64,000 nucleotides of DNA from positions 64,001 through 128,000 of the IMG/VR virus record IMGVR_UViG_3300045988_179268; one strand, 5' to 3'. The notes beneath the pieces are model-generated. The model saw nothing but the letters and a program-made list of their open reading frames with translations, searched no databases and had not been told where the DNA came from. Shown piece after piece: positions 1,266-31,647 of this stretch. The translations under genes were made by a program, and so were the position numbers. Numbering within the stretch: the stretch's first letter is position 1; each line of letters opens with the position of its first letter. This DNA comes from a virus.

Positions 1266-1340
1266 AAGTTGGGGTTAGATAAGCCACCTAACGCTATGTC
1301 TTTAGAAAGTATCTTTAGACCGTTAGGTGGTTTTTTCTTT

Positions 1341-2138: not shown

Positions 2139-2184
2139 GGTATCCTTGACTGAATTGTTCTGTGTATTTTGGAAGGCGTGATTT

Positions 2185-3069
2185 ATGAGTGATGCGTTTT
2201 TGTATGACTGGTGTTTAGTGTCTGGTCGTTCCGTCCCGAAGCCTGTTTATCATGACGAGGAAACTAACCAGGATGCTTATGGTTCGTGGTGTGATGAGGC
2301 TGGGCGTGCTGTGATTGTTGCATGTGATGGGGCTGGTTCGTTGGCTAAGTCTCGCATTGGGGCACGCATTGTCGCTGACACTATTGTTTCTGAGGGGCGC
2401 GCCGCGCTTGAGAGGTTCACCCCTTCGGGTGATGCCTCTGAGGATGCTGAGGCTTTACGTGAGAGTATTCTTGCCGCGCTTGCTATGGCAATGAACACGG
2501 TGTGGGGTGCGCAGGATTCCGATGAGATGGGATGTACTGTTGCGGCGGCTATGTTCTGCGAGGGCGCATTTGCGTATGTAACTTTGGGCGATGCGTTTGT
2601 TCTGGTTGGCGATTATGCTGGTTCTACCCCTAAGTATCAGTCTCATGTCGAGATGTGGGATGCTCCAAATATTACGACGTTTACCACATCTGATAACCCG
2701 TACATATTAGTGTCCTGTGGTACGGGCGCTACTTGGTGTATGGTTGCTTCGGATGGGATGAAGAATCCTTTGGTTCGGGCGGCGACAGCTGACAGTGATG
2801 AGGCTATTGAGGAATCGTTGTTCCGTGAGGGTGATGATGGCGAACCTCCTCTGTATCTGGTGTTGTTCTCTTCAAAGCATACTGACGACTTTTTAGCCCA
2901 TTTGGAGCGTGAGAAGTATCTTGACGATGATACTACGTTTGTTATGGCTGGTTGTTTGAATAAGCCTGCTGATGGGTCTTTAAGGATGATTACTGAGTCT
3001 GCTAAGGCGAAGCTTGTCCCTGGTGATTATGGGTTCGTTGAACGTCTCCAGCTGGGCTTAGATAGTTAA
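2185..3069 (+). CDS. PP2C-family Ser/Thr protein phosphatase
   Basis: Motifs VIVACDGAGS, MVASDGMKNPL and LDDDTTFVMA match the PP2C metal-binding motif order (DGxG ... SDG ... DNxT-like). Confidence 0.7.
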   Translation: MSDAFLYDWCLVSGRSVPKPVYHDEETNQDAYGSWCDEAGRAVIVACDGAGSLAKSRIGARIVADTIVSEGRAALERFTPSGDASEDAEALRESILAALAMAMNTVWGAQDSDEMGCTVAAAMFCEGAFAYVTLGDAFVLVGDYAGSTPKYQSHVEMWDAPNITTFTTSDNPYILVSCGTGATWCMVASDGMKNPLVRAATADSDEAIEESLFREGDDGEPPLYLVLFSSKHTDDFLAHLEREKYLDDDTTFVMAGCLNKPADGSLRMITESAKAKLVPGDYGFVERLQLGLDS

Positions 3070-3151
3070 TTTTTGTCATGAGGGTGCTCACCTGTTCTAC
3101 CTTTCCGGTGGGCAGGGTGGGTACCCTCATCTTTTTTGAGGGGAGTTATTT

Positions 3152-5086
3152 TTGGCTGATTATATTGCCCGCTTAGCGGATGGGAAATCTTTCCCTGTTA
3201 GGCTGGAAGATTCACCGTTAGGTCGTGGTGGTGAAGGCGCTGTTTATGCCGTAAGTTCTGTAGGTTCTTCAACGTTGGGGTCTGCACATGATTTGGTAGG
3301 GAAGATTTACCACCATGACGAGTCTAAGCACGCACAGCGTGAAGCTAAGTGTTTGGCGATGGTTGCGAGTGTACCTCAGACTGATTCGATTGTGTGGAAC
3401 TTAGGTAACTTGTATGACACGAATGGCGAATTTGCGGGCTTCTTAATGAAGAGGTTGCAGATGGATGTTTACCGTAGTTTCATGGAGGTAGCTCATACTC
3501 GACATAGGCGCAAACGTTTCCCCGAGTGGTCTGTTATGCACGCCCTTCTTATGGCTAGAAACCTCGCTGTAGCTATTGACGCTGTACATACTGCCGGGCA
3601 TATGGTTGGCGATGTGAACGAGTCGAATGTTCTTGTGGCTAAGGACGCTACTGTGCGTATCGTGGACGCGGATAGCGTTCAGATTAGCGCGGGGGATAAG
3701 GTGTACCCCTGCGTGGTGGGTAAGCCTGAGTTTACTGCGCCTGAGATTGGCGAGGGTAGTTATGCGGAGGAACGCAACCGTAGAACTGTCGCTACGGACA
3801 TGTTCGCTTTTGTGGTGATGCTCTTTAATGCTTTAATGGGTAGGGCTCACCCAACAACTTGTAATTACAAAGGTGAGCATAAGGATGTTACAACGCTGAT
3901 TGATATGGGGGTTTACCCTACCTTTGTTCCAAAGTTACCGCGTGGTTTTTCGAAGTTGGATGAGCTGGAGTATGAGGCTATCCCGAGTAGGGTTCATGAC
4001 GTGATTGGGCGGGGTTTGTCTAGTGACCCTGCTAAGCGTCCAAGTTTCGATGAAGTTATCGCTGTTTTTGACGAGTTGTTTAAACGTGACGATGATGGGT
4101 ATGTTAATCTAACGCAGTGTTCTGTGTCGCCTTTGCATTGGTGGGATGCGCGTGATGGGGCTTCTTGTCCTATGTGTCGTTTCGCTTCCCGTAAGCCGGG
4201 CGCTGACATTTGGGGTGAGGATAAGTCTGCTGAGGACATGTCAGCTATTCTAGCTAAGGCTGAGAAGAAGCAGGCGAAGCGGAAAACAAAGTCAGCTAAG
4301 ACCACCCCTGGTGTTCAAGCACCTGGTTTGAAGGCTGTCCTCGCGAGGAAGAAAACTGTTGCCCCGCCAATACCAACGGGGCAAGGTACTCAAGGTCAGC
4401 CTTATCAGGGTGCTACACCTGTTCAAGGTGCTACCCAGCAGTCGGGTGCATCTCAGGGGAATACGGCGGCGGGTAGGTTGCCTGGCGCGCCACCAGATGT
4501 GCAGAAAGTGTCGGGCAAGCTTGCTGTCCTTGATGAAGATGGAAATTTGGTTGCCCGACCACCTATCTTAACTCTGGTTAAAGGTGATTCTTACCGTATT
4601 GCTTTTGATGCTTTGTCTGCTGAGAATCCCCGTATTATGCCGTGGGTGTCCTCGTACCGGGCGGTGCCTATTTGGTGGGTGGCGCTCCTTGCGTGTGTTG
4701 TTGCTTCGTTGGCGTGGTGGTTTGCCGCGCCGGGGATTACGGCATGGGTGGTGGCGGCTATTTTTGATGGCGGGGTTCCTGCCCATATCCTGCCTATTGT
4801 TGCGGGTGTCCAGTTTGCGATATGGGCTTTACCTGCGATAGCCGTTGGTTTGAGGTTCTTAAGTGGTCTGGTGTTATGGTGGCGGCGTGCCCGAGAGGTG
4901 AAGGAGAATGGTTATGGGGCGGTCGTTTTTGAGTCTGCCGGTCAAACTATTTTAAGTGTGGCACTTACGTCGCTGGTGTCTGGTATTCTTTTACCTGCAT
5001 TGTTACTCATTAATGTGCTTTTGAAGATAATCTATGAGATAATTTATAGTATCTTTTACTCAGGCGACTCTGCCAACAGGCGTTAG
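3152..5086 (+). CDS. Ser/Thr protein kinase fused to a Cys-rich (zinc-ribbon-like) segment, a Gln/Gly/Pro linker and a C-terminal polytopic membrane domain
   Basis: Kinase motifs: G-loop GRGGEGAVYAV, Lys in VGKIY, catalytic loop GDVNESNVLV, DFG-equivalent IVDADS, APE in EFTAPE. CSVSPLHWW..CPMCR follows the kinase. About 5-6 hydrophobic helices lie in the last ~190 aa. TTG start is preceded by GAGGGGAG. Confidence 0.8.
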   Translation: MADYIARLADGKSFPVRLEDSPLGRGGEGAVYAVSSVGSSTLGSAHDLVGKIYHHDESKHAQREAKCLAMVASVPQTDSIVWNLGNLYDTNGEFAGFLMKRLQMDVYRSFMEVAHTRHRRKRFPEWSVMHALLMARNLAVAIDAVHTAGHMVGDVNESNVLVAKDATVRIVDADSVQISAGDKVYPCVVGKPEFTAPEIGEGSYAEERNRRTVATDMFAFVVMLFNALMGRAHPTTCNYKGEHKDVTTLIDMGVYPTFVPKLPRGFSKLDELEYEAIPSRVHDVIGRGLSSDPAKRPSFDEVIAVFDELFKRDDDGYVNLTQCSVSPLHWWDARDGASCPMCRFASRKPGADIWGEDKSAEDMSAILAKAEKKQAKRKTKSAKTTPGVQAPGLKAVLARKKTVAPPIPTGQGTQGQPYQGATPVQGATQQSGASQGNTAAGRLPGAPPDVQKVSGKLAVLDEDGNLVARPPILTLVKGDSYRIAFDALSAENPRIMPWVSSYRAVPIWWVALLACVVASLAWWFAAPGITAWVVAAIFDGGVPAHILPIVAGVQFAIWALPAIAVGLRFLSGLVLWWRRAREVKENGYGAVVFESAGQTILSVALTSLVSGILLPALLLINVLLKIIYEIIYSIFYSGDSANRR

Positions 5087-5165
5087 AGTGGCTTACGGGT
5101 TTCCAGCTAAGTTGGGGGTTGCTTGAGTTTTTAAGTGACCCCCAACTTTTTGTAAGGAGTTAATA

Positions 5166-8266
<3,101 letters not shown>

Positions 8267-8303
8267 CGAAGCGCCATTACTTACTGACAAGCCAATATTT
8301 TTG

Positions 8304-8336
8304 AAGGCTGGAAGTTTGCTGTGAACTTCCAGCCTT
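8304..8336 (+). terminator. Hairpin terminator after ligA
   Basis: aaggctggaagtt (8304-8316) pairs perfectly with aacttccagcctt (8324-8336). A T-containing tail follows. Confidence 0.65.
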
Positions 8337-8357
8337 TGCTATATTTATCAAACCGGG

Positions 8358-8386
8358 TTGCAAACATCAGCAATTTTCGGTATAAT
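8358..8386 (+). promoter_or_regulatory. Near-consensus sigma-70-type promoter
   Basis: TTGCAA (8358-8363), 17-nt spacer, TATAAT (8381-8386), in an AT-rich gap. It would start a ~700-nt leader before rpf. Confidence 0.45.
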
Positions 8387-9091
8387 TAACCTTTAATCCA
8401 ACTTGTGCAAGATTGTATGTTTCTGTCATCTATTGTTGCAAAACTTGACGGCTTGTATCATACTATAAGTACAGGCGAGGATGAATCTGATGTAGTTATA
8501 CATTATGCTAATCCAAGCCAATAATCGAATCAATGCTAAAGCATAGTCACTACTACCAGCCCCCCCCTTACAAGACATTTAAATCCATCCACCGTCCTGG
8601 TTGCAATTTTTGTAACCGCCCCATATTTTTTTTTGACGAGATGCAGATTTGAACCGTCTTTACAGGGCATTGAGGCTGGGAGAAGGATTGCCTTAGATAC
8701 TTGGTTCAACTATATATGTAACCCTAAGCGTTCCGCGAGGGGCTAGAGGTGCTGTAGGGTGCCTATAACAGGTTTTGCCTGTTATGAATTAAATGCAATA
8801 TTTAAACCTATCTTATCTCAGTGGTTGTTCCTTTGATTAGGTTCAGCCCGTGTATCTGAACTCATTTCTGAGGAGGATACACTCGGTTCTTCTTCACGCC
8901 CCCACAGTTGGGGATGCACTCTGATTAGCTAATTCATAGAATGGCTGGTCACTTCAAGGGTGTATCGGATTCTGTGGTGAGCCGCCCACGAAGTTGAACT
9001 AGAAATTTAGCCCACTTTACACAAGAAGGGCGGGCGGAGGCGCGTTTGAGCTCTGGGGACGGGGCGAGCGAGGGCACCCTTAAGGAGTATT

Positions 9092-9892
9092 ATGAAGAAC
9101 ATTTCCATTCGTCGTGCCGCTGTAGCTCTTGCACTTGGTGGTCTTTCCGTTGGGGCGCTTGCTGTTCCTTCGGCTAACGCCGCTGATTTGGCTACTTGGG
9201 AAAAACTCGCTCAGTGTGAGTCGGGTGGTAATTGGTCTATCAATACTGGCAACGGTTTCTACGGCGGTTTGCAGTTCACTCAGCAGTCGTGGAATGGTGT
9301 TGGTATGAGTGGTTCGCCGCATACGGCTTCGAAGGAAGCTCAGATTGAAGCGGGCGAACGTCTTCTTGCTTTGCAGGGTTGGGGCGCATGGCCCGCCTGC
9401 ACAGCTAAATATGGTCTTTCTGGCGCGGCAACACCTACGTACACTGATACTGGTGTAGCAAAGTCTGCCGCTTCTACTTCGGCGGTATCTAGCGCCGCTG
9501 TTGTTGCTCCTCAGAGCAATACTCAGACTCCGGTTACTCAGCCGCAGGCTCCTGTGGCTGTTCAGGCTCCAGCTGTTGCTGAGTCCACGCCGGTTGCACA
9601 GGAACCTGTTGTTGAGGCTCCGGCTGTCACTTCTGCTGATGCGGCTTCTACTGCCGCTGTTGAATCCGCACCTGTAACCCCTGTGGTTGAGCCTGCCCCT
9701 GTTGAGACGGTTAAGGCTCCTCGTGTAGCTTCTTCTACTTATCAGGTTGTTGCTGGTGATACGCTGTCTCTTATTGCTAACCGTCTTGGTGTAGCTGGAG
9801 GCTATCAGGCTATTGCGGATGCTAATGTTGATGTAATTTATGATGTGAACCTTATTTTCCCCGGTCAGGTTTTGACTATTCCGGGACAGTAG
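9092..9892 (+). CDS. rpf: Secreted resuscitation-promoting factor (Rpf transglycosylase-like domain) with Ala/Pro/Val-rich linker and C-terminal LysM
   Basis: Signal peptide ending ..PSANA. Rpf core ATWEKLAQCESGGNWSINTGNGFYGGLQFTQQSW. LysM YQVVAGDTLSLIANRLGV..IFPGQVLTIP. RBS AAGGAG. Confidence 0.9.
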   Translation: MKNISIRRAAVALALGGLSVGALAVPSANAADLATWEKLAQCESGGNWSINTGNGFYGGLQFTQQSWNGVGMSGSPHTASKEAQIEAGERLLALQGWGAWPACTAKYGLSGAATPTYTDTGVAKSAASTSAVSSAAVVAPQSNTQTPVTQPQAPVAVQAPAVAESTPVAQEPVVEAPAVTSADAASTAAVESAPVTPVVEPAPVETVKAPRVASSTYQVVAGDTLSLIANRLGVAGGYQAIADANVDVIYDVNLIFPGQVLTIPGQ

Positions 9893-9979
9893 GGTACAAT
9901 ATTTATATAACATATTTTTGTCCGACTTAGTAAAAATTATATGTTGAGTAGGCGGCTAAGGTTAGTCTACTTTCTCACA

Positions 9980-10023
9980 ACTTGTGCCCCTGAGTTATCG
10001 CAAGGTATCTCAGGGGCACAAGT
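9980..10023 (+). terminator. Hairpin after rpf
   Basis: 15-bp perfect stem: acttgtgcccctgag (9980-9994) with ctcaggggcacaagt (10009-10023). Confidence 0.6.
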
Positions 10024-10066
10024 GTGTTTAAAAGCCATTTCGCGGGCTTTCCATATGAACACGCAC

Positions 10067-10115
10067 AGAGGGTGCCCACCAGAAACTTGCAACGGTTTTC
10101 TGGTGGGCACCCTCT
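10067..10115 (-). terminator. Hairpin after the minus-strand RepA-like gene
   Basis: 17-bp perfect stem: agagggtgcccaccaga (10067-10083) with tctggtgggcaccctct (10099-10115). It lies just downstream of the stop at 10135 on the minus strand. Confidence 0.6.
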
Positions 10116-10134
10116 AGTTATGGAAGCCCTGCTT

Positions 10135-12750
10135 TTAGTAGTACATGATGGGGTACTCATCAGTAGGCTCAGGCTTAGGGTTCATGATACCGTCCAGGAC
10201 GGGTTTCCTGTCCTTAGCGCCATTTACCCATTTAAGGATAGCGGCGCGCGCCTCAGCTTCCTCATCATTACTGACAGGAGGTAGAGATGCTTCATCAATG
10301 ACTTCTGATTCTACCGGGTCAGCGTTAAAGTTCGCCAGGTACCCATCAAGGGTTTCTTCGGCATCGACATACTTGTAGTGTGCGTCCACTCTATCCCACG
10401 GCGCTAGAGTGGACGCGACGTTCTTAGGCATGTTGGTGCAAATTTCACGCTTCGCAGTGTGGGCAGGGGTGTCCTGACGCGGCGCAGTATCGCTGACGGT
10501 AGTGACAGGCTTCTCCGAAGCAGGGTTCACTACAGGGCGGGCAGGCTCATGTGTGACAGTTTCTTTTACTACCTTAACGTGACGCACAGGCTGAGGCTCG
10601 GGAACACTAACAGGCACCTCGGTGACACTCTTGGGTTTTGCCGGGCGGGTAGCGCGGGTTTCAGCAATGGTGCGCTTGATGTCCTTGCCAAAGTCTTCGG
10701 TGTAGAGGACGCGGCAGTAGTAGTCGTCACCCTTGGTGTATCGGCTTCCTTCGTTGGGGTACATGTACCCGCCGGAGGGTAGCTTAATGCGGACAGGCGG
10801 GAACTTAACACCCTTCTTCCACTCATTGTAATTATTGACGGGGATGATACCAGCCTGGAGTGCGTCAGAGTATGCGTAGTGTTCCGGGGTGTCCGCGTTC
10901 AGGGTAATGATGTAGTCCTCGTCCATGTACTTCTTGAGGAAGTCTTCATCGAGAAGGTCGAAGTTAGCTACAGCAGGGTTCCTGAGTAACGCCTCAGACA
11001 TGTAAACGGTGGAGGGTGCGCCGAAGTTACTGTCCTTACGTTTCGCAGGCTCAGTCTTCGGGGTAGCTTCACTGTTAAGGCGGGGGAGTCCGTCAGTGGC
11101 TACGTGAGGCTCACTCACGGGCTTGTCCTGGTTGGAGGTGTTGTTCTGTACGGCAGGCTCCTGGATAGCGCGTGCGGGGCGTACAGTAACCGGGGTTTCC
11201 CTCGGGGTATCCATGATAGACGGCTGGTTCTTAATGGAAGCTTCCACATAAGCCTGCCAGCTATTAACCTTCTTCATGTTGCCGTTGCGTGCGGAAGCGG
11301 CGTACCTGTCAATAATAGTATCGACAATACGCTCCCAGTCTTCACTAATTGCAGGAAGATAAACGCCAACAGCGCCACTAATCTTAGTAGATAGTAACGC
11401 AAGGTCTACAGCACGGTAAATATTGCCCTTACGGGGTGCGCGGATAGGGATAAGAACCTGCTCATCCTTAGCGGCAGACTCATTCAAAGTCTCACGAGAC
11501 ACAGCGCTACGAACAGCCTTCGAAAGAGTGTCACCTTTCTTCACCGCATGAGGGCGAACAGCCTTAACACCAGAACGATACGCCTGAACCATAAAGCCAG
11601 CAAAGCCCTTACGACCTTTGCCGCCGACAAGGGACACAACATCCTCAGCACCCTCAACCATCAGCAAAGAACGCACCGCATTCACCGCATTACGGTAAAC
11701 ACTACGCATCTTATGAACAGAGGAAGAGAACACGGCGAACTGGCGTGCTAAATGCGACCACGCAACCCACACCTTCGAAGTCTTAATGTTACCGCTACGC
11801 AACGAAGCCGCACGCGCCAACACAAGCGCCAACACATCCAAAGCAACAGCCGAAGAACGAACCAGCTTACTACCCCACATACCAGCAGGAACAGCAACCA
11901 CATTACCACTGTTCACATAGTCAAAGAACTCATCCGAAACACGAACAACCATGAACCCAGACTCATTACCCTCCAAGCTATACATGATGCCCATCGAAGA
12001 ATCCTCAACATCAGCGGCAACACTGAACGCATGAAGAAGCTCCCCACGCCCACCCTCCTGCGCACGCTCAAAAACAGCAGAACGCAAACCAAGGCACATA
12101 CGGAAAGTATCAGCAAAATGGCGGTACCCCTCAGCAGATAAAGCAGGCACACCAGCCAGGCGCGCCAAAGCACGCGGCTGAGAAGGAACCACAAACTCAG
12201 CAGAACCCGTCTCCAACACGCGAGAAGCAATAAACGCTAAGATACGGCGAGCCATAACACCCGAAGGCATCTCCAGAACCTCACCACCGCTAACGCTAAG
12301 AACAGGCGAAGGGACATGCTGTACAACACGTGCCAGCGAAGAACGCTCCCACACACCCTGCTCATTAAAAGCAGAACCAGCAGAGACAGAACGCGCAGAC
12401 ACCGGCAAACCACCATGCACATAAGCAAGCGGCAACATCCAAGCATCACGCTCAACATCTACACCAAGAACATCCTCAACAGACGCAGAATCCGGTAACA
12501 GGCAACCGTCAGAGTCTACAACACCATACGGACTGTAAGAACTACCCTGTTCACGCTTATTCTCAGCATGAGCAAGAACAGCGTCCTTACGTGCCCTCAG
12601 ATACAAAGAATCACCCGTGAAAGTCTTAGCAGACTGCACAGGCACAAAAACAGACGCAGACTCAGGTTCAACAGGAACCATCACCGCGTCTTCAAAATTC
12701 TGAGAGCCCGCCTTAGCGATATTCACGTGCGCCTCCTTCCAAGGTGCCAT
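10135..12750 (-). CDS. Large chimeric protein. The N-terminal ~440 aa resemble plasmid-encoded RepA-type initiators. The C-terminal ~430 aa form a Pro/Thr/Lys-rich region plus an unknown domain.
   Basis: From memory of the plasmid-encoded RepA family: PSGVMARRILAFIASRVLETGSAEFVVP..ALARLAGV and SSAVALDVLALVLARAASL..VWVAWSHLARQF match its conserved blocks. Start taken at MAPWKEAHV (12750), not the upstream alternative start at 12795. Confidence 0.45.
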   Translation of the reverse strand: MAPWKEAHVNIAKAGSQNFEDAVMVPVEPESASVFVPVQSAKTFTGDSLYLRARKDAVLAHAENKREQGSSYSPYGVVDSDGCLLPDSASVEDVLGVDVERDAWMLPLAYVHGGLPVSARSVSAGSAFNEQGVWERSSLARVVQHVPSPVLSVSGGEVLEMPSGVMARRILAFIASRVLETGSAEFVVPSQPRALARLAGVPALSAEGYRHFADTFRMCLGLRSAVFERAQEGGRGELLHAFSVAADVEDSSMGIMYSLEGNESGFMVVRVSDEFFDYVNSGNVVAVPAGMWGSKLVRSSAVALDVLALVLARAASLRSGNIKTSKVWVAWSHLARQFAVFSSSVHKMRSVYRNAVNAVRSLLMVEGAEDVVSLVGGKGRKGFAGFMVQAYRSGVKAVRPHAVKKGDTLSKAVRSAVSRETLNESAAKDEQVLIPIRAPRKGNIYRAVDLALLSTKISGAVGVYLPAISEDWERIVDTIIDRYAASARNGNMKKVNSWQAYVEASIKNQPSIMDTPRETPVTVRPARAIQEPAVQNNTSNQDKPVSEPHVATDGLPRLNSEATPKTEPAKRKDSNFGAPSTVYMSEALLRNPAVANFDLLDEDFLKKYMDEDYIITLNADTPEHYAYSDALQAGIIPVNNYNEWKKGVKFPPVRIKLPSGGYMYPNEGSRYTKGDDYYCRVLYTEDFGKDIKRTIAETRATRPAKPKSVTEVPVSVPEPQPVRHVKVVKETVTHEPARPVVNPASEKPVTTVSDTAPRQDTPAHTAKREICTNMPKNVASTLAPWDRVDAHYKYVDAEETLDGYLANFNADPVESEVIDEASLPPVSNDEEAEARAAILKWVNGAKDRKPVLDGIMNPKPEPTDEYPIMYY

Positions 12751-13184
12751 AGACAAAAAACTTTTTACTAAAACAGCAATAGTGTAACACACCAACGCAA
12801 AACCACCAAAACTAAGAATGCTCCCTTCATAAGATGCATCCCCAACCTTGGCGACAAAACCCAGGATAACATAGAGCCATCCTCATCAGCAAATCTTGCA
12901 ACTACCGCAACAGGTGACCTTAGCCAGCGATACCTAACCACCACCTACTCTTTGCTCCGTTATTTTTAAAAAACGTCAGCAGACTAACAGCCGCCGCCTA
13001 GAACCAGCAAACCCCACAACGGCAGTGCGTAAATCCTCCAAGCCCCGCCCACAAACAAGCCAAACAATCCTCCAAAAACCGCCACCACGGGATAATCTAA
13101 TCAATAATCTATAGTGAAACCCAACAACAAGACCGCCGAACCCCTTACAGGACAAGGGAACCAGCCGCCCCCCGCACTCGTGAC

Positions 13185-13268
13185 AAACTACCAAAAAGTC
13201 ACTCAAACCCCCAAAAACTACCAAAAAGTCACTACCAAAAAACCACTCAGAAAACCCTAAAAAGTCAC
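13185..13268. repeat. Iteron-like direct repeats in the divergent intergenic region
   Basis: aaactaccaaaaagtcact occurs at 13185-13203 and 13215-13233 (30-nt period), with a partial third copy ctaaaaagtcac at 13257-13268. aaaaaccactcag occurs at 13238-13250 and 13363-13375. Nearby are ataatcta/ataatcta and atatgcgcgca/atatgccgcgca pairs. Confidence 0.5.
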
Positions 13269-13504
13269 AAGAAAAACCTGGTAGTCAAAACCTCACCCAG
13301 ATAACCTAAATAATTCCCTTAAAGCCACCCGTCAGACCCCACTGACCATTCGAATAACAGCAAAAACCACTCAGGTGCCACTTTTGCTATGGCATATGCG
13401 CGCAACAAAAATATGCCGCGCACCTTTCCGCCTTGAATAACTCAGAGTGGAACCACTAAAATGTAAATGTCCCAACAAAATACGTCTAAGGAGAAACACC
13501 GAAC

Positions 13505-13822
13505 ATGGCAACCCCACAGATTACCGTCTACAGCAAGAACAACTGCATCCAGTGCAAGCAGACCGCACGAGTGCTAGACGGTGCAGGAATCACCTATGAC
13601 ACCTACAAGGTAGACGAACAGCCCGAAAAACTGGAATACATTAAGGGACGCTACCCGAACATCATGCAAGCACCCATCGTGACCATTCGTACCGAACACC
13701 CGGAACGCTACCTCAGCCTCCCCGGAGTTAGCCAGCACGAAAGCGACAAGAACGAAATCTGCTTCGCAGGCTTTATCCCTGACGTTCTCAAGGTAGCAAT
13801 CAGCGAATCCAGCGAACAGTAA
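13505..13822 (+). CDS. nrdH: NrdH-like glutaredoxin-fold redoxin
   Basis: ITVYSKNNCIQCKQTARVLDGAGITYDTYKVD...MQAPIV matches the NrdH layout (CxQC active site, ..QAPVV). RBS AAGGAG. Confidence 0.7.
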   Translation: MATPQITVYSKNNCIQCKQTARVLDGAGITYDTYKVDEQPEKLEYIKGRYPNIMQAPIVTIRTEHPERYLSLPGVSQHESDKNEICFAGFIPDVLKVAISESSEQ

Positions 13823-13840
13823 CAGCTCCCCACACATCAC

Positions 13841-13882
13841 ATGCGGCACCCCGAAGCCATCAGGTAGGCAGGGGTGCCGCAT
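13841..13882 (+). terminator. Hairpin after the nrdH-like gene
   Basis: atgcggcacccc (13841-13852) pairs with ggggtgccgcat (13871-13882). Confidence 0.5.
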
Positions 13883-13920
13883 GACTCTCTACGCACACCC
13901 AAAAGAAAGGTTTCGGCATC

Positions 13921-14367
13921 ATGAACAATGTCCCGCCACTCATCCTTGTCGGATACACCGCCCTCACCAACTCCATCAGCAATACCCTCACCTCTATGGC
14001 GGTCACAAACCGCCAAATTGAAGACTGGGCTTCCCAAACCGGGAACGGTAAAAACCGCACCCTTGCCACTAAAGCCGCCGAAGCCACCAATAAGATGAAG
14101 AATCTGCTAGAAGTTACTCAGCCTAAACAGGAAGCCGCCCACCGCGACCACCTGGAGCACGCCTCCCAAGAGCAACAGCAGGAAGACGGAAAGTCCACCG
14201 AAGAACTCATGGTCTTCAACAACCAGTACGACACCATCTTCAACGAATGGAGCCAGGTAGTCGAACAATGGGAAGAAACAAAGAAAGCTAAGCCAGCCAC
14301 GAAAGACGGTCTTCCAGCCCGATTCGGCTACGTCTGCCGACGACATGACTTCGGCACCTACTGCTAA
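13921..14367 (+). CDS. Hypothetical protein; start uncertain
   Basis: ORF with Gln/Glu-rich centre. No motif recognised. Confidence 0.4.
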   Translation: MNNVPPLILVGYTALTNSISNTLTSMAVTNRQIEDWASQTGNGKNRTLATKAAEATNKMKNLLEVTQPKQEAAHRDHLEHASQEQQQEDGKSTEELMVFNNQYDTIFNEWSQVVEQWEETKKAKPATKDGLPARFGYVCRRHDFGTYC

Positions 14368-14410
14368 ACCACCACACTAACCGCCACCCTCCAGTAAAAA
14401 GGAAACGCAG

Positions 14411-16177
14411 ATGCGCTACAGCCAAGAACTCATCCAGAAAGTACGTGAAGCACACGACATCATCGACGTGTTCCAAAACGCCTTCCGCAACACCAAGAAC
14501 ACAGACGTTCAAATGAGTGGCGTAAACGGCAAAGCTCTCTGCCCCTTCCACGATGAAAACACCCCCTCATTCAACCTAAACACCGTAACTGGCACATACC
14601 ATTGCTTCGGATGCGGCGAATCCGGCGACGTTATCAGCCTCATCATGGAAACCAACGGCGGCAACTTCACTGACGCTATTGAGTACCTGGCAGAAACAGC
14701 GCAACCACCTATCGAGCTACCCAAAAGAAACTCCGACGAAGGCAACGTCACCAGCAATCGCCGCCTCAAAGAAATCACCGCCGCCGCATGGGACTTCTAT
14801 GTCAAGCAATACGCTAACCTGCCTGAGAGCCACCCTGCAAAAGCTCAGGTCACTAAGCGCGCCCTCAACCCAAACCTACCTCACTACGGATATGCCCCCG
14901 GCGGTAACGCACTCACCAAACACCTCACCCAAACCTACACTCCCCACGAGCTAACCCTCGCCGGAGTCTGCGCCCAAAACAAAGACACGGGCGAACTTTA
15001 CGACTTCTGGCGTGACCGCTTGATGTTCGCCATAACAGACATGCACGGAACCCCCGTATCATTCACCGGGCGCGCCCTCAACCCGGACGAAGAACGAAAA
15101 TATGTGAACGGACGCGCAACCCCCATCTTCGAAAAAGAAAAACTTCTCTATAACCCTAACATCGCTCACGCCAACCAGACCGCCCGAGCAACAAAAACCT
15201 GCTACATCGTAGAAGGACAGTTTGATGTCATCTCAATGTACGACAACGGATACACCAATGTGTACGCAACCAGTGGTACAGCCATCACCAACCAGCACAT
15301 CAAAACCCTGCAACGACTAACCGGCGAAACGGGGAACATTATCTACATTCTCGACGGCGACAAAGCAGGAATGAAAGCAACCGCCGCCGCATACCACACT
15401 GCCCCACACGCACAAGCGCAGTCGTGGGCAGTAACCATGCCCCCAAACATCGACCCATGCGACTACCTCCAACAATACGGTCAAACCAACTTCACCAAAC
15501 ACCTCAACACCGCAATCCAGCCGCTCACCAGCGCCGCCCTCAACTACTACGCGAACATCTACAGCCCAACCGCGTTCAACACCCAAACCGCGTTCCTCAC
15601 CGAAGCCGCAAAAATGCTCGCCAACACGCCAACACCAGCCATCAAACAACTCATCATCAACACCACCGCCCAATACACCCACACCAACACCTATCAAGCA
15701 GAAAAAACACTCGAACAACGCGCAACCCAAAACCGTAAACCCACAACTGAAATACCATACGAAGGAAGCGACAACACCACTATCACACACCAGTGGAAAA
15801 CACCCAACGACGAAACGGCATACCATACCACCAAAACCCTCATCGATGCGGGTGACAAACAAACCCTCGCCGCCCGCAAACTACTACACCTCGCCCTCTA
15901 CTACGGCGCATCCCAACGACTAATCCAACCAGAATCCTGGCAAGAACTACCCGCAACCATCCACCAGCTATACAACGAAGCCGTGACACTCTACCAAGAA
16001 GGAAAAACACTACACCCCGACAACTTCACTAACCCACCACTAGCAACCCTACTAGTAGCACCCACCCAAGCGGACAGCACCCATCTCACACCTGAACAAG
16101 TCACACGTGAGTTCGACACAACCCTCAAGATGCTGACCCGCGCAAATATCCGCAAACGCAAAACAGTCCAACGCTAA
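14411..16177 (+). CDS. DnaG-type DNA primase (CHC2 zinc finger + TOPRIM) with a Thr/Gln/Asn/Pro/His-rich C-terminal half
   Basis: CHC2 finger CPFHDENTPSFNLN..YHCFGCGESGDVISLI. TOPRIM YIVEGQFDVISMY ... ILDGDKAGMKA. Confidence 0.85.
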   Translation: MRYSQELIQKVREAHDIIDVFQNAFRNTKNTDVQMSGVNGKALCPFHDENTPSFNLNTVTGTYHCFGCGESGDVISLIMETNGGNFTDAIEYLAETAQPPIELPKRNSDEGNVTSNRRLKEITAAAWDFYVKQYANLPESHPAKAQVTKRALNPNLPHYGYAPGGNALTKHLTQTYTPHELTLAGVCAQNKDTGELYDFWRDRLMFAITDMHGTPVSFTGRALNPDEERKYVNGRATPIFEKEKLLYNPNIAHANQTARATKTCYIVEGQFDVISMYDNGYTNVYATSGTAITNQHIKTLQRLTGETGNIIYILDGDKAGMKATAAAYHTAPHAQAQSWAVTMPPNIDPCDYLQQYGQTNFTKHLNTAIQPLTSAALNYYANIYSPTAFNTQTAFLTEAAKMLANTPTPAIKQLIINTTAQYTHTNTYQAEKTLEQRATQNRKPTTEIPYEGSDNTTITHQWKTPNDETAYHTTKTLIDAGDKQTLAARKLLHLALYYGASQRLIQPESWQELPATIHQLYNEAVTLYQEGKTLHPDNFTNPPLATLLVAPTQADSTHLTPEQVTREFDTTLKMLTRANIRKRKTVQR

Positions 16178-16180
16178 AAC

Positions 16181-16237
16181 GCTCAAATGGGGCTGGTCTA
16201 CAAGTAGCTAAAACTTGTAGACCAGCCCCATTTGAGC
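16181..16237. terminator. Bidirectional hairpin between convergent genes
   Basis: 25-bp perfect stem: gctcaaatggggctggtctacaagt (16181-16205) with acttgtagaccagccccatttgagc (16213-16237); 7-nt loop. Confidence 0.7.
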
Positions 16238-16246
16238 GTATAAAAA

Positions 16247-17440
16247 TTAACGCATCAGCTTAGCGACAGCAACAACTGCATCCACATATTCGTCGCCCAA
16301 ACGTCCATACTCGATAGGGCGAACCATGCCAAACCAAGCAGAAGGAGTCTCTAGGAACCTTACGACCTTCTCCGGTGCCCAACTCAACGCAGATAACTCC
16401 TGAATCAGCCGCGCCGCCGCTGGGCAAATCAGCCATGCATCCACAAATCCATCCATCTCATTTAGAATAGGGGAGAAATTGCACCGCGCAAACTCATACT
16501 CACCATCGACAACATTCATAACAAGCAACTCGCCACGGTCACCCATGCGCCTAACCTCATCAACACTTGCCCCTAAAAGGCGAGATACAGTCCTCTCACT
16601 AACCCAACACAAACTCCAATCAGAAGCCTTCCTGCCAGTGTCCTTGGCGCGGCTAAGTAAAACACTTTCCTGCATATGAAGAGCGTCCGCGACCTGCTCA
16701 AAAGCGTAATCATCGAAGCCGCCGCCAGCAGTCTCAACCACCAAAGCGTCAGCGTTAAACCCAGTGCCAACCAACGCCCTAACAATGCCCGGATTCGGGA
16801 CGTTACCCACCGACGTTACCCGCCAACGCCTTACAGATGAATCGGTGTGCCAAGCCAAAATATGCGCATACACATCAGCGATAACCAACGTCCTCAAATC
16901 CTTATCGCCAGACATCAAAAGCTCAGCTGGAGTGAGGAACCCGTAATCATCCTTCGGGTCAAACAAAAACGAAACAGCCTCCGCCACAGGAACGCCACTA
17001 CGAGCCAAAATCTCAGAACACTCAAATAACTCAGGGTAGAAAACCTCCATGCCCTCACCACAACAAGAGAACTGAGCACGAGGAAACACCAAGCCGCCAG
17101 CCTCTTCGCACTCTTTACCAAGGATGCTACCGTCGTGGTACAAGCGCATCACAACATCCTCAGGCACCCCACGCCCCTTCAAACTATCAACAGTCTCAGC
17201 ATATTTAGACAACTCCAACTCAAAACTCCAAGAATGGGCACCGCCACCCCAAGAATCCCTCAAACGAGAGCTAATCCACTCAGCAGGAAGCCCTAACAAC
17301 TCCACAGCAGGCGCAATATTCGCATACTGCCAATCCACGTCCGGCACCTTCACCAGCCCCAAAGAACGCAACCTCAAAATATCCTCAGCCTTAGGGAACT
17401 TAAAACCCTCAATGTTCCTGTTAAAAACGTCATAAAGCAC
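16247..17440 (-). CDS. Hypothetical protein, possibly a DNA-binding regulator (HTH-like segment plus two Xre-antitoxin/DUF2384-like C-terminal-type segments)
   Basis: SERTVSRLLGASVDEVRRMGDRGELLV resembles excisionase/MerR-type HTH. FLETPSAWFGMVRPIEYGRLGDEYVDAVVAVAKLM and FLFDPKDDYGFLTPAELLMSGDKD resemble DUF2384 ends. All weak. Divergent from the T4SS operon. Confidence 0.3.
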   Translation of the reverse strand: MLYDVFNRNIEGFKFPKAEDILRLRSLGLVKVPDVDWQYANIAPAVELLGLPAEWISSRLRDSWGGGAHSWSFELELSKYAETVDSLKGRGVPEDVVMRLYHDGSILGKECEEAGGLVFPRAQFSCCGEGMEVFYPELFECSEILARSGVPVAEAVSFLFDPKDDYGFLTPAELLMSGDKDLRTLVIADVYAHILAWHTDSSVRRWRVTSVGNVPNPGIVRALVGTGFNADALVVETAGGGFDDYAFEQVADALHMQESVLLSRAKDTGRKASDWSLCWVSERTVSRLLGASVDEVRRMGDRGELLVMNVVDGEYEFARCNFSPILNEMDGFVDAWLICPAAARLIQELSALSWAPEKVVRFLETPSAWFGMVRPIEYGRLGDEYVDAVVAVAKLMR

Positions 17441-17555
17441 AGCAAATATCCTCTCAAAACAACAACGTTAAGCCACTCACATTGTACCAAATACGCCATT
17501 CGCGCTATAGGGAAAACAGGATAAGAAATGTCGAAGTAGCGAAAGTAAGGATGGA

Positions 17556-20156
17556 ATGAACCAGGAAGCGCTAAATTACCAACGAGAAGGTAATGAGGTG
17601 CCCAATGATAGTCAGAAACCAGCTGAAAACTCGGCTGTAAACGACTTTGTGGGCAATCTGATATACACGCTCATCAAATGGGCGTTCATTATCATCGCCG
17701 TAGTGCTTTGTAGCCCAGCACTCATCGCCGCCACCATCATCATCAGCTGGTCATACTACTACCTGACCCGAAGGAAAATGATGCAAGCCTCCGAAGTGGG
17801 GTTATATATGGGCGGCACGGCGTTAGGCGGGTTACTTCTCTGGTTCATCTTAGATGTCCCGAAGAAGTTTGCCAGCGCCTTCAACTCACTGATGCAAGCA
17901 CCCGGCGAATACCTCTCACCAACAGGGATATTTGACCTTGTTGGCACTTTCAGTACACCCTTCACCATCGCAGGAATCATCCTGGGCGCGCTACTCGGAT
18001 GGGCACTCGCCGCCAAAATCCAATACGACTACAACCATAACGAAGAACTAAAGTACAATGACTCATTCTGGATGAGTGAGAAGAAATTTAAGTACCGCCC
18101 AACCCCAAAACAGCGCCGCAACCGCAACAAACTCGAAGAGGAAATCAGCGAAGGCGCTAACTTCATCCTGCCCAACGAACGCCCAGACATGTCGCCAGGC
18201 GTAGCATACGGCATCAACGAAGAATCAGGCGAAGGCGTATGGTTCACTGTGCCCGAAATTCCCCGCCACGTCATCAAAGTCGGCGCACCTGGTAGTGGCA
18301 AAACTGCAACCACCGAAAGCGAAATTCGCGCCAACGCAAAACTAGGAATCACAAGCATCCTTGTAAACATGAAAGCCGACCTCGGACTTGCCCGAAAACT
18401 AGCGAACTACGCCGCCGAAGAAAACGTAAACTTCTACCATTTTACACAAGGCAACCCCGCCACCGGCGAATACGATAACGCCTACAACCCCCACGGTCCC
18501 GCATACCTTGACCCATTCGCCGGGCTTAAAACAGCTGAAAAGCTGGACATTGCCATCGGCTTCCAGAAATACCAAGACGAGGCTCAGAAATACAAGAACG
18601 ACGTGTGGGCGACCCTCCAGATACTCCTCAAAGCTCTAGACGAACTAGAGGAATACATGAAGGAAAAAGAACGCACTAACCCCGCCGAATATGTCCTCCT
18701 GGCAGACGAACTAGAGCAAGCTGGAATCCCTTGGCATAACGGCGAGTTTAGGCGATTCTGTGGTGCCCTCATGTCCCCCGAAGTGCTACTCAACCACCTA
18801 CCCGAAGGCAACCTCACGGGCGCTGAACTACGCCGCCGAATCCTTGAAGGTGCAAGCGGTAACGTCAAAACATCCTGGGAAACTCCACGTGGCAACGTCA
18901 GCATCATGCTCAACTCAGCATACGGGCGCTGGCTTGGGCTTCCTCAAAATGGGGAGCCCTACATCGACTTTGACAAAATTGTCGCCCCTAACGCAACGCC
19001 GTCCATTGTACTGCTTGATTTCAATGCTGACTCTGAGGTTGAAGTCAGTACCGGCTTCGGTAAGATGCTTGCAAGCCTCCTCACCAGCATGTCATCACAC
19101 CGCCGCCGCGACGACACCCAAAAGCTGAACGTCATCCAAATTTTCTTTGACGAGTTCCAGACCATTCCGCTAACCAGTATCGCAGGTCTGCTGGAAAAAG
19201 CACGCTCCTCAAATGTTGGTATCTCCCTCGGACAGCAGAACCTTGAACAGCTTTACGAAAAGAACGACCCAGCGGCAGTGAACAGCCTCCTAGTGAATGC
19301 AGATACCCTTGTTGTACTAGGCGGCATGAAGGGTGGCGAAACCGCTAAACGCATCGTCACCCTCGCCGGAACCAAAGAAATTAAACGTTACAAAGTGGAC
19401 TCAAAGCGTGAACGTGTCCTTTGGAAGAACCTTATCCAATGGGACGATAACCGCCGCTACTACAAGTCTGTAGAAAAGGTCACCGTCCCCCGCGTCTCCG
19501 AAGAACAGCTCATTAATCTCCGCCGACCTAACCCAGACAAGGGAACCTTCTATACGGAAGGCATGATTATTCGAAAGACCCCGTACATCGACCCCATCAC
19601 AGGTGAAACCCGTGAAAGGATGGACGGCACCCTAACACACATCATCCTCCCTAAACAGGTACTCGAAAAGCTACCCCGCGTACCGTCCGAACCTGTCGTC
19701 CCACCGACTACCACCTACACCCCCAAACACTACCCTAAGCTAAATAAAAAAATCTCAAAGCCTCAACCTAAAACTAGTACTCATGAACAAACCAAAAAAC
19801 AGCAAGCCCCTAAGGTAAGCCCCCAACCAGCCGTGGTAAAGCCTGCACCTAAAGCGCGTCCAGTGGTCACGCCGCCAACAGCCACGCCGCCACCGCCGCC
19901 ACCACAGCCCACAAAAGCTACCCCGCAACCAGCAGGGAACGCTATGAACAAACCAAAGAAACCGCAACTAACCCAAGCCCCCGCGAAAGGACAAAACAAC
20001 GCACAGCCGAAAAAGCCACGGCTAACCCAACCCGCCAAACCCGCCGAAGAAGCACTCCCACCAGTGCAACTCCAACCACGCATCATGCGCGGAGTAATTT
20101 CTGAAAGCGTCCAGACCCGCAAAACCCAACAGACAAAGAAAGACGAGAACCAATAA
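17556..20156 (+). CDS. Type IV secretion coupling protein (VirD4/TraG/TraD-like) with a Pro/Lys/Gln-rich C-terminal tail
   Basis: N-terminal TM helices. Walker A VGAPGSGKTAT. Walker B IQIFFDEFQTI, followed by RSSNVGISLGQQNLEQL (TraG-D_C-like). Tail has near-repeats KPKKPQLTQAP / QPKKPRLTQPA. Confidence 0.8.
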   Translation: MNQEALNYQREGNEVPNDSQKPAENSAVNDFVGNLIYTLIKWAFIIIAVVLCSPALIAATIIISWSYYYLTRRKMMQASEVGLYMGGTALGGLLLWFILDVPKKFASAFNSLMQAPGEYLSPTGIFDLVGTFSTPFTIAGIILGALLGWALAAKIQYDYNHNEELKYNDSFWMSEKKFKYRPTPKQRRNRNKLEEEISEGANFILPNERPDMSPGVAYGINEESGEGVWFTVPEIPRHVIKVGAPGSGKTATTESEIRANAKLGITSILVNMKADLGLARKLANYAAEENVNFYHFTQGNPATGEYDNAYNPHGPAYLDPFAGLKTAEKLDIAIGFQKYQDEAQKYKNDVWATLQILLKALDELEEYMKEKERTNPAEYVLLADELEQAGIPWHNGEFRRFCGALMSPEVLLNHLPEGNLTGAELRRRILEGASGNVKTSWETPRGNVSIMLNSAYGRWLGLPQNGEPYIDFDKIVAPNATPSIVLLDFNADSEVEVSTGFGKMLASLLTSMSSHRRRDDTQKLNVIQIFFDEFQTIPLTSIAGLLEKARSSNVGISLGQQNLEQLYEKNDPAAVNSLLVNADTLVVLGGMKGGETAKRIVTLAGTKEIKRYKVDSKRERVLWKNLIQWDDNRRYYKSVEKVTVPRVSEEQLINLRRPNPDKGTFYTEGMIIRKTPYIDPITGETRERMDGTLTHIILPKQVLEKLPRVPSEPVVPPTTTYTPKHYPKLNKKISKPQPKTSTHEQTKKQQAPKVSPQPAVVKPAPKARPVVTPPTATPPPPPPQPTKATPQPAGNAMNKPKKPQLTQAPAKGQNNAQPKKPRLTQPAKPAEEALPPVQLQPRIMRGVISESVQTRKTQQTKKDENQ

Positions 20157-21385
20157 TGGCTATTAAACACGAACGCAACAATAAGCGACAGGTAAATCCA
20201 GTACAGCCCACAGACCAACCTATTACCTTCAACGAAGACGAAGACAGTACCCTATACGCCAAGAATAACAACGGCGGCGGCATCTCAGTTCTAGGCGACC
20301 CAAAATACGTGAACCTAAAGGACAAAGAGAAACGTGGACGCATCGTCTCATACGTCCTAGCAGGACTACTAGCCACATGCTTCATCGGGAACAGTGTATA
20401 CCAGTTCACCCTACCTAAACCGCCGAGCGACGCAAAAATTGCTTCCATCGCACGTTCAGCAGTAGGGGAGACGGGGTTCAACAAGCAAGCAGGCGAAGAC
20501 ATTGCAGTAAGCTACGTCAAAGCATACCTAAGCCTCAAAACAGACGAAACAGCTGAAAAACAGCTTGCCTGGTATCTTACAGGCGACAGTCTCTCATCAG
20601 CCAGCGACCCTGGCACATCGGGGAATATCCGAACAAGCACAGCAAACGCCGCACAGCAAGTTATCGGAACACCGCAAGTGACAAGGATTGCAGTACATAA
20701 AAACTCAGCCCTTGCAACATACCGAGTTGTGGCACTCGTCAAACCTGCCGCCACCGGAACTGGAACCACAGTGAAGGACGCGGCAAAAAACAATAACCAG
20801 AACGCGGAACTTAAACAAATCTCCATGTCTGTCACCGTAGCTTTCGACAAGGACACCTCGAAATACTACATCGCCACACCACACCCTTCTATCGTCCCTT
20901 CACTATCAATGGGCAAGTCCCAAGAACTAGTTAAGAGCAAAGGCATCCCTGGCGCAAAAATTCAAAATAGCGCCGACACTGATGCTGTTATTCAGGGCTA
21001 TTTTAAGGCTTATGTATCAGCAACCCTGGAAAAGCCAGGCGACCTATCACAGTATGTCCTTGATATTAAGAAGGCAACGGTTGCAACAACCGGGTTCGGC
21101 GGTCAGTACACCATCAACACCAACAGCATCAGCTACGAGGCATACCGCCAAGAAAACGGCGACATCATCGCCAAGGTGAACCTTGAGCTAATTGACGAAC
21201 TTGGTGGGAGCACTGACACCGACACCAAAGAGAGTGCGAAGCAGAACATCACCTATCCGGTAACTTACAAGGTGACTCTCGCTAAGCAGTCTAACGGTAA
21301 GTATCTTGTGTCTAACCTCGAACCGGACGTTTACGACACAGACGCTACCAACATTACCAAATACAGTTCTAGTACTAGTGAATAA
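20156..21385 (+). CDS. Membrane-anchored conjugation protein, TcpC/ConB-like
   Basis: TAATG overlap with the coupling-protein gene. Single TM (IVSYVLAGLLATCFIG) followed by two repeated ~150-aa modules, each with ..SYVKAYLS.. / ..GYFKAYVS.. motifs as in NTF2-like TcpC domains. Confidence 0.45.
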   Translation: MAIKHERNNKRQVNPVQPTDQPITFNEDEDSTLYAKNNNGGGISVLGDPKYVNLKDKEKRGRIVSYVLAGLLATCFIGNSVYQFTLPKPPSDAKIASIARSAVGETGFNKQAGEDIAVSYVKAYLSLKTDETAEKQLAWYLTGDSLSSASDPGTSGNIRTSTANAAQQVIGTPQVTRIAVHKNSALATYRVVALVKPAATGTGTTVKDAAKNNNQNAELKQISMSVTVAFDKDTSKYYIATPHPSIVPSLSMGKSQELVKSKGIPGAKIQNSADTDAVIQGYFKAYVSATLEKPGDLSQYVLDIKKATVATTGFGGQYTINTNSISYEAYRQENGDIIAKVNLELIDELGGSTDTDTKESAKQNITYPVTYKVTLAKQSNGKYLVSNLEPDVYDTDATNITKYSSSTSE

Positions 21386-21431
21386 AACTCCCTGATATAT
21401 ATACAGGGACAATACTAGTATCTTAAAGAAA

Positions 21432-21728: not shown

Positions 21729-21765
21729 CGCACACCATAAAGAAGCATAACTGCTTCTAAACCAA

Positions 21766-21804
21766 AGAAGCCCCTCACCATGAATCCAATGGTGAGGGGC
21801 TTCT
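21766..21804 (+). terminator. Hairpin
   Basis: 16-bp perfect stem: agaagcccctcaccat (21766-21781) with atggtgaggggcttct (21789-21804). Confidence 0.6.
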
Positions 21805-21868
21805 GATATGAAATATACAGCAAAGAACTAACCCACCAAAGAAAACATTAAAGGAGTAGACAAAACTT

Positions 21869-31632: not shown

Positions 31633-31647
31633 AAGGACGCAACTACA

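Follow-up and report, generated by a model that had tools for sequence, protein, structure and literature searches.

The DNA analysed here, hereafter the window, comprises 64,000 nucleotides (positions 64,001–128,000 of the IMG/VR virus record IMGVR_UViG_3300045988_179268) and, judged from its sequence, is part of a large (~319-kb) conjugative element from bacteria of the human mouth. Inside one of its genes, a minus-strand open reading frame of 886 codons at 10,135–12,795 that we call gene X, the strand composition of the DNA reverses: the top strand is rich in the keto bases G and T to the left of this point and in the amino bases A and C to the right. This switch in strand bias is real, highly significant and mutational. 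Its anatomy, sign, step-like extent and conservation can be read directly from the data, as can its mutational nature and the spectrum of transitions behind it. The reading we favour, at a little less than an even chance, is that the switch is a terminus-type replichore boundary, the element having a replisome of its own.

Measured per kilobase, GC skew runs from +0.07 to +0.26 at 1–11 kb and from −0.11 to −0.39 at 11–23 kb, while AT skew runs from −0.11 to −0.31 left of ~11 kb and from +0.18 to +0.45 right of it; both reverse sign at one point, beyond what chance would produce. The cumulative keto-minus-amino walk reaches its maximum at 11,303 (2-log-likelihood support interval 11,291–11,498, gene X codons ~432–501), and in 200-nt windows the transition is finished between ~11,200 and ~11,600. 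Top-strand G+T is 0.590 at 1–11,300 versus 0.363 at 11,301–24,000 (z=35), and the centred cumulative walk spans 3410, whereas 500 block shuffles gave 605 on average and 1208 at most. The switch separates a left domain with a keto-rich top strand (1–11,300; G+T of 0.72–0.87 at the fourfold degenerate sites of plus-strand genes) from a right domain with an amino-rich top strand (11,301–64,000; fourfold G+T of 0.13–0.5), none of the three features being assigned to a strand. The original prediction had placed a flip near 11.4 kb from hand counts of G+T and A+C; ten of its 12 counts are exact, two are off by one, and the windowed skews across the window do change sign there.

The bias must be mutational, since it is strongest at fourfold sites and is present in intergenic DNA. 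At fourfold sites, the left arm has a top-strand G+T of 0.77, the part of gene X at 11,301–12,795 one of 0.13 and the stretch at 12.8–20.2 kb one of 0.26, and intergenic top-strand G+T is 0.56 left versus 0.34 right of the switch; the asymmetry persists when only intergenic or fourfold sites are counted. Nor can gene orientation account for the switch, because the plus strand carries nearly all genes on either side of it. The minus-strand genes share the polarity of their arm, which agrees with the independence from gene orientation proposed earlier. One of them, at 16,247–17,440 in the right arm, has a top-strand fourfold G+T of 0.24, and its product consists to 37% of Gly, Val, Phe, Trp and Leu because the polarity of the arm makes its coding strand keto-rich. 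The tail of the DnaG primase is 41% Thr, Gln, Asn, Pro and His. Both compositions are as first described, and the broader claim that an asymmetry of the single-stranded DNA (ssDNA) or replication type reshapes proteins is borne out by the fourfold sites and by the PP2C orthologues discussed below.

How far does the bias extend, and what is it made of? In a JGI metagenome, sample 3300053491, the window occupies positions 64,001–128,000 of a contig of 319,371 bp. We joined it to neighbouring loci taken from that contig and from one relative with a 99% identical FtsK-like protein, and in this way could read ~100 kb of the 319-kb element. A weighted linear fit of per-gene fourfold G+T for 67 genes over this distance yields an arm term of ±0.174 and a strand term of ±0.102 that makes the coding strand keto-rich (R2 0.83; arm alone 0.72, strand alone 0.11). 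Over these ~100 kb, the arm term reverses solely at the gene X switch. Counted from the switch, left polarity stays the same over at least 28 kb and continues at least 17 kb past the window start (fourfold top-strand G+T 0.6–0.8); right polarity does so over at least 62 kb and continues at least 9.5 kb past the window end. The first hint of a separate transcription-linked component was the weak skew of the left-arm minus-strand genes recA (0.65) and recX (0.50), compared with 0.72–0.87 in their plus-strand neighbours. This component also corrects the earlier impression that the bias decays towards 60 kb. The positional bias is undiminished and step-like: minus-strand right-arm genes stand at 0.13 next to the flip and likewise 45–65 kb away, and those at 69–73 kb (58–62 kb from the flip) at 0.08–0.12. 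Right-arm plus-strand genes only look weaker because the transcription-linked term opposes the positional term there. The two halves of gene X find the same explanation. Its coding-strand wobble positions are ~90% G/T in the N-terminal half, where the terms add (top-strand fourfold G+T 0.13), and near neutral in the C-terminal half, where they cancel (~0.5). The arm and strand terms together are the classical replication-plus-transcription structure at a highly unusual amplitude. Plus-strand genes of the right arm at 31,225–33,015, 48,462–49,484 and 58,990–59,688 are more strongly skewed than their neighbours (fourfold top-strand G+T 0.24–0.34 versus 0.44–0.55), a block-like heterogeneity that is possibly linked to expression.

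For comparison, 47 metagenomic loci were recovered. They include 38 full-length homologues of gene X, from 96% down to ~42% identical and on contigs of up to 440 kb, and the conserved blocks span the whole length of the gene, which marks it as a real open reading frame. In clade A, made up of groups at 96, 87, 76 and 55–60% identity and one at 48%, the switch lies inside gene X, with the type IV secretion system (T4SS)/DnaG side showing one polarity and the sortase-to-Rpf side the other. In clade B the flanks are neutral or blocky and gene X still switches internally, and the switch is common to lineages down to 47% protein identity. Clade C, the most distant at 38–43% identity, lacks a switch in gene X. 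Its midpoint falls at codons ~480–500 in the window and the 87% and 76% groups, at ~300–350 in the 55–60% and 48% groups, and at ~460 in clade B. Across these alignments the switch appears as a conserved but graded zone of ~0.5 kb with no fixed nucleotide. The flip is therefore abrupt, as first claimed, on the kilobase scale; at finer resolution it is graded, with a midpoint that differs between clades.

Several smaller observations belong to this comparison. The ligase gene ligA (window 6011–8266) is present only in the groups at 55–96% identity and absent from the 48% group of clade A and from clades B and C. We considered it as a correlate of the polarity regime and rejected it, as the 48% group lacks it and keeps the switch; it is an accessory insertion unrelated to the switch. 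Part of clade C carries two genes with the toxin-antitoxin-associated SocA/Panacea domain between gene X and Rpf (locus L004, 12,156–13,603). When positions 1–23,500 of the window were compared with four close loci (L006, L009, L011 and L012), nucleotide identity to L006 was 0.96 at 16.2–22 kb and 0.81–0.89 elsewhere, while identity to L009 was 0.90 at 12.8–16.2 kb and 0.97 in gene X. Such inconsistent regional identities indicate frequent recombination among co-circulating lineages.

Gene X itself has no sequence match in Pfam, NCBIfam or PDB. Its AlphaFold model (domain pLDDT, the predicted local distance difference test, 63–88) contains a predicted N-terminal RepE-like double winged-helix at residues ~160–400, a conserved helical block at 460–530 and a C-terminal domain at 600–720. 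In Foldseek searches with this model, the top 40 matches were all RepE or complexes of Rep with iterons or the DNA unwinding element (probability 0.99, target template-modelling score 0.43–0.47, E ~2e-3). The RepE/RepA-like label is thus structurally supported, short of proof, by the predicted fold. The original prediction had put the switch in the middle of a RepA-like gene; the mid-gene position holds, within the conserved helical block, while the family label stands on predicted fold and finds no sequence-family match.

Upstream, the intergenic DNA from which gene X and nrdH diverge holds iteron-like direct repeats (13,185–13,300, minus strand) with the core AGTGACTWTTTGGTAG on the gene X strand, a putative Rep-binding array. 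Every clade has 3–6 direct repeats with this conserved core 400–700 nt upstream of gene X. The ~1.8 kb proposed as the distance from the switch to the repeats was measured as 1.4–1.9 kb. At the other end of the gene, between gene X and the convergent rpf/lysM gene, two unstranded hairpins with perfect or near-perfect stems of 18–19 bp (9980–10,115) are probably bidirectional terminators; the switch lies ~1.2 kb from them, further inside gene X. A cis-element embedded at the switch was also considered and rejected, the 21-nt repeats at 11,540 and 11,681 being unconserved. In one clade C locus (L004, 9766–9790), two perfect nonamers that resemble DnaA boxes (TGTGGATAA) stand in tandem ~210 nt upstream of gene X; the window contains neither a counterpart nor an enrichment of these nonamers.

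Which mutations built the bias? We polarised singleton variants in six within-clade alignments, at fourfold sites in codons with invariant first and second positions. On recent branches of the keto-rich strand, C>T stands at 0.152 versus 0.065 for G>A, and A>G at 0.160 versus 0.060 for T>C. This 2.3–2.7-fold excess of C>T and A>G is inverted in domains of opposite polarity and is ~1 in neutral regions. Amino-to-keto change on one strand (C to T and A to G) is the signature of deamination. The singleton analysis replaced a parsimony spectrum with a 25%-divergent outgroup, which was biased to common-to-rare calls and was dropped, and an allele-frequency test for purifying selection on skew-eroding changes was confounded by mis-polarisation. 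The sequence context of forward mutations showed no APOBEC-like TC or other enzyme-like motif, the effects being 2–4-fold and confounded by codon position. Singleton variants are clustered among relatives. An IS605-type TnpB gene that occurs in one relative only (L059, 8000–9271) has a fourfold G+T of 0.56, versus 0.66–0.84 in the surrounding left arm; the weak skew of this newly inserted element fits a bias that accumulates over residence time.

In distant relatives the per-gene coding-strand fourfold G+T becomes blockwise and saturating. In clade C locus L004, the TcpC-like gene (3206–4447) has a value of 0.00 (0/232 sites), next to a type IV coupling protein (T4CP) gene at 0.43 and a VirB4-like gene at 0.63. 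The PP2C gene of the same locus (18,043–18,918) stands at 0.05 and the VWA gene of L003 (17,559–18,362) at 0.02, compared with 0.77 and 0.85 for the PP2C and VWA orthologues in the window. Third positions of the L004 TcpC gene are 2% G/T while its first and second positions and its protein identity (48%) are ordinary, a pattern of bias filtered by selection. Where constraint is weak, the protein is remodelled: between the PP2C orthologues, the share of Lys, Asn, Thr, Gln, His and Pro is 54% versus 18%, and identity drops to 35%. Along the sortase-VWA-PP2C operon of L004, third positions pass from A/C only through a mixed stretch to G/T only for ~300 codons, and through another mixed stretch back to A/C only. 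The G/T-only stretch takes in an intergenic spacer. This opposite block of ~1 kb (L004, 19,450–21,100), with 88–100% G/T at third positions, covers the VWA N terminus, the spacer and the sortase C terminus and is common to all seven clade C loci; third-position G/T runs from 0.08 to 1.00 within the sortase gene and from 0.89 to 0.02 within the VWA gene. Block edges and gene boundaries do not coincide, and scans for promoters and terminators at the edges found nothing exceeding shuffled sequences. Import of the block from a clade-A-like donor was rejected, as its third-position identity to clade A is not elevated. The hottest blocks, namely TcpC with the C terminus of T4CP, and DnaG, coincide in clades A and C.

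We favour a terminus-type replichore boundary on the grounds of sign. The standard rule is that the lagging-strand template, identical in sequence to the leading strand, turns keto-rich, and in both arms the keto-rich strand points with its 3′ end toward the switch. A canonical bidirectional origin, rolling-circle replication, a conjugative T-strand or strand displacement starting there would each expose a strand with its 5′ end at the site and give the reverse sign. That a top strand going from keto- to amino-rich is what converging forks would give, as originally argued, is correct by this rule. The accompanying suggestion of coincident start and end points of unidirectional replication fails, as such a scheme gives no sign change by itself and every unidirectional variant mispredicts one arm. 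A rightward fork would copy the left arm and a leftward fork the right arm, the two converging inside gene X, so that the strand preferentially single-stranded, and hence deaminated (C to U, A to hypoxanthine), would shift from top to bottom at the switch. A second, transcription-linked term would make the non-template (coding) strand keto-rich, and its classical sign provides an internal check on the chemistry. A bias of this size may arise because ssDNA persists, or deaminated bases are poorly repaired, while the element's own replisome is at work, and Rep–iteron complexes or head-on transcription of gene X may form a fork barrier. The fork directions, and the cause of the forks meeting beside a RepE-like gene and its iterons, are what we infer.

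Several observations weigh against this boundary. A RepE-like gene with conserved iterons normally marks an origin, yet the sign is opposite to that of a canonical origin, and a second, origin-type switch is absent from the ~100 of 319 kb read. At the switch site we found no repeats, palindrome or inverted repeat, dif-like site or DnaA boxes, nor any excess of synonymous conservation, and the midpoint shifts by 150–200 codons between clades. Nearly all right-arm genes would be head-on to replication. In clade C, gene X has no switch, saturated blocks adjoin neutral genes, and terminus-type and origin-type flips lie ~1 kb apart inside genes. There the fork model needs, conjecturally, an origin and a barrier ~1 kb apart, which would give effectively unidirectional replication, together with strong expression effects. 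The mutational dynamics point the same way: recent changes imply equilibria of 0.73 and 0.34, too weak an asymmetry to maintain the observed 0.88 and 0.18, and their net effect is to erode the skew (p=2e-20 and 6e-11), although sites with the rare base may be enriched in fast-evolving sites. The extremes were so built under an asymmetry stronger than that on recent branches, or episodically.

A broader alternative, which we regard as possible but rather doubtful, is that this family of ~250–370-kb oral actinobacterial conjugative elements undergoes domain-wise, strand-specific deamination hypermutation, with walls set by an unusual replication system of the element. Hypermutation of this kind would drive wobble positions to 0% or 100% keto, leave orthologues opposite in polarity and remodel proteins, for reasons other than ordinary origin/terminus geometry. 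The walls might reflect a fork trap formed by the RepE-like protein with its iterons, or long-lived ssDNA left behind by a poorly coupled replisome with a split DnaE. In the literature searched, no such hypermutation is described for bacterial replicons.

Could the switch instead be a local wall that has nothing to do with forks? One strand might stay persistently single-stranded or unrepaired in domains of a kilobase to 100 kb, in one variant the non-template strand of a dominant sense or antisense transcript or of R-loops, with positive feedback to saturation; at gene X, convergent transcription of the left-arm operon would meet transcription of gene X itself. The saturated blocks of both polarities in clade C, flipping ~1 kb apart inside single genes and with edges off gene boundaries, are what such walls would look like. 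Saturation to 0/232 suggests bistability, the wall in gene X is graded and moves between clades, and no long gene here other than gene X is convergent. The clear strand (transcription) term and the evidence that the extremes are relaxing also fit. We nevertheless consider this explanation unlikely, as the clade of the window has one switch in ~100 kb and an arm term that far outweighs the strand term, and the plus-strand genes of the right arm would require dominant antisense transcription over more than 60 kb. In addition, convincing promoter or terminator signals are missing at the block edges, and a literature search gave no bacterial precedent for a transcription-linked bias this strong.

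Either the Rep/iteron module is not the active origin (perhaps it is a fork barrier) or the site is an origin of inverted polarity. The latter would be a bidirectional start in or near gene X at which the leading-strand and not the lagging-strand template is more exposed or more error-prone, perhaps owing to an unusual, poorly coupled replisome of the element. Origins embedded in rep genes are familiar from lambda O and RepA_N plasmids, the switch lies less than 2 kb from both the RepE-like gene and the iterons, a coincidence that is unlikely for a terminus, and an AT-richer stretch adjoins the iterons. The element has its own split DnaE polymerase, and the fuzzy, clade-variable switch resembles a possible initiation zone. 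Still, we judge such an origin decidedly unlikely. Its sign would break a near-universal rule in DNA whose transcription term is classical, and the encoded DnaB and DnaG imply ordinary exposure of the lagging-strand template. The switch also shows none of the repeats, DnaA boxes or synonymous conservation of an origin, and the iterons at 13.2 kb sit deep in the right-arm domain, where no switch occurs.

Conjugation offers another source of ssDNA: one strand could be exposed repeatedly through the T4SS, the discontinuity being oriT with its nic site. A Gram-positive-type ssDNA T4SS begins immediately right of gene X, and a plasmid primase, SSB and a ligase are encoded. The transfer genes of clades B and C and of the right arm have the keto-rich strand as their template, as with the T-strand of the F plasmid. 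But exposure of one strand round the whole circle should make the bias jump in size at nic, with no symmetric change of sign, and every variant we worked through mispredicts the left arm. Near the switch, no relaxase was recognised and no nic-like inverted repeat was seen. T-strand exposure is very improbable.

The recent inversion or recombination junction proposed earlier, joining DNAs with different histories, is barely credible even in elements that recombine often (inconsistent regional identities, clustered singletons): gene X is one intact reading frame with full-length homologues, collinear in all 47 loci, gene order and orientation do not vary between loci, ruling out an inversion or junction, an inversion would have flipped gene orientation too, the switch is shared across deep clades, and third-position identity between the opposite block of clade C and clade A is not raised. 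The apparent right-arm decay had also suggested resection from a double-strand break or from genome ends, or else an origin with a delayed start of the leading strand; both ideas lost their motivation and were dropped when the decay gave way to a step-like positional term. Strand-displacement replication like that of mitochondrial DNA (mtDNA), rolling-circle, protein-primed linear and unidirectional theta replication each mispredict the sign or one arm, by reasoning only.

We would also like to place the switch in the context of known systems. Like the skew switch at a bacterial terminus, it flips both skews at one point independently of orientation, is step-like over tens of kilobases and strongest at synonymous sites, and has the sign of converging leading strands together with an additive, classical coding-strand term. 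However, its magnitude is far larger (fourfold values of 0.13 versus 0.77, and 0.00–1.00 in relatives), it lies inside a RepE-like gene beside iterons and not in a dif/Ter region, gene orientation does not switch with it, and orthologues in relatives disagree in polarity. In size, the bias is far above that of ordinary bacterial replicons and resembles the asymmetry between the heavy and light strands of vertebrate mtDNA, which likewise involves C>T and A>G on one strand and reshaped proteins. The fourfold composition of right-arm plus-strand genes is also very close to that of mtDNA, with frequencies of C 0.51, A 0.31, T 0.11 and G 0.08 in dnaG. Vertebrate mtDNA, in contrast, shows no sign change and a gradient that follows single-stranded time, where we see a sign change and steps. 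The predicted double winged-helix at residues ~160–400 and the upstream direct repeats recall iteron initiators (RepE of mini-F and the pi, TrfA and RepA types), from which gene X differs in lacking a sequence-family match, in its 886 residues with extra domains and in the adjacent terminus-type switch. In fork traps a terminator gene stands beside its sites, as with tus/TerB in Escherichia coli and rtp/TerI–II in Bacillus subtilis, and RTP is a winged-helix protein. The combination of a gene for a winged-helix protein, adjacent repeats and a terminus-type skew switch is reminiscent of such traps, but here the switch lies 1.4–1.9 kb from the repeats, is graded and varies between clades, and the fold matches are to initiators. 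Any contrahelicase activity of the gene X protein would be hypothetical.

The gene content of the element is consistent with a conjugative lifestyle. The left domain encodes a sortase, VWA and PP2C proteins, a Ser/Thr kinase, LigA (an NAD-dependent ligase) and an Rpf/LysM hydrolase; the right domain encodes NrdH, the DnaG primase, a T4SS (coupling protein and TcpC-, VirB4- and VirB6-like proteins), cell-wall hydrolases, an SbcC-like protein, SSB, DnaB and a RecG-like protein. Left of the window lie genes for RecA and RecX (L056, 1821–3635, minus strand, left arm), a PD-(D/E)XK nuclease and the FtsK-like protein, and, ~17 to 11.5 kb left of the window start, a split DnaE-type Pol III alpha subunit flanking a clamp-loader-like gene (L058, 327–5807), with a PHP/N-terminal part of 503 residues and a polymerase/finger/HHH part of 904 residues. 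By their predicted functions, the split DnaE, the clamp-loader-like protein, DnaB, DnaG, SSB and LigA make up a near-complete replisome of the element's own; no proofreading subunit was seen in the parts of the element read. Right of the window (L061, 11,294–16,436; window ~64.0–69.2 kb), where gene orientation starts to alternate, genes for AAA_10, ParA/TadZ-like and T2SSE (Tad/Cpa-type) ATPases suggest a Tad-like pilus locus.

Several related loci derive from human oral metagenomes, and the host is probably an actinobacterium, to judge from a lysM-Actino RNA motif (RF03090, 155 bits; window 8873–9091, plus strand) that lies upstream of the Rpf/LysM gene. The 64-kb window holds no tRNA genes. 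Megablast returned no close DNA relatives in annotated phage and plasmid collections, tblastn of gene X and T4CP gave no match in PLSDB, and gene X has no relative among 185,579 reference genomes. Identity with the giant oral element 'Inocle' was rejected, since Inocles have 24–32% GC versus ~51% here.

Strand asymmetry is usually a weak signal that serves to locate origins and termini. In form, what we describe is known, namely a replichore-type skew switch combined with a transcription skew. Its amplitude, its sign and place relative to the Rep/iteron module, the differences in polarity between orthologues and the alternating saturated blocks are, as far as we could find, undescribed, and the literature search turned up no comparable extreme or blockwise strand bias in plasmids. 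Here the asymmetry fixes nearly every free codon position and changes the composition of orthologous proteins two- to three-fold. The practical consequences are considerable: skew-based origin calling would mislabel the element, binning and host prediction from codon usage or composition are misled, and homology searches lose sensitivity for its proteins. The carrier is a large, widespread element of the human mouth that is missing from reference genomes and plasmid databases. If its polarity reflects fork direction, the replication architecture of the element can be read from its sequence and has shifted between lineages while their genes stayed in place; otherwise, the alternating saturated blocks point to a new local process of ssDNA damage or editing in bacteria.

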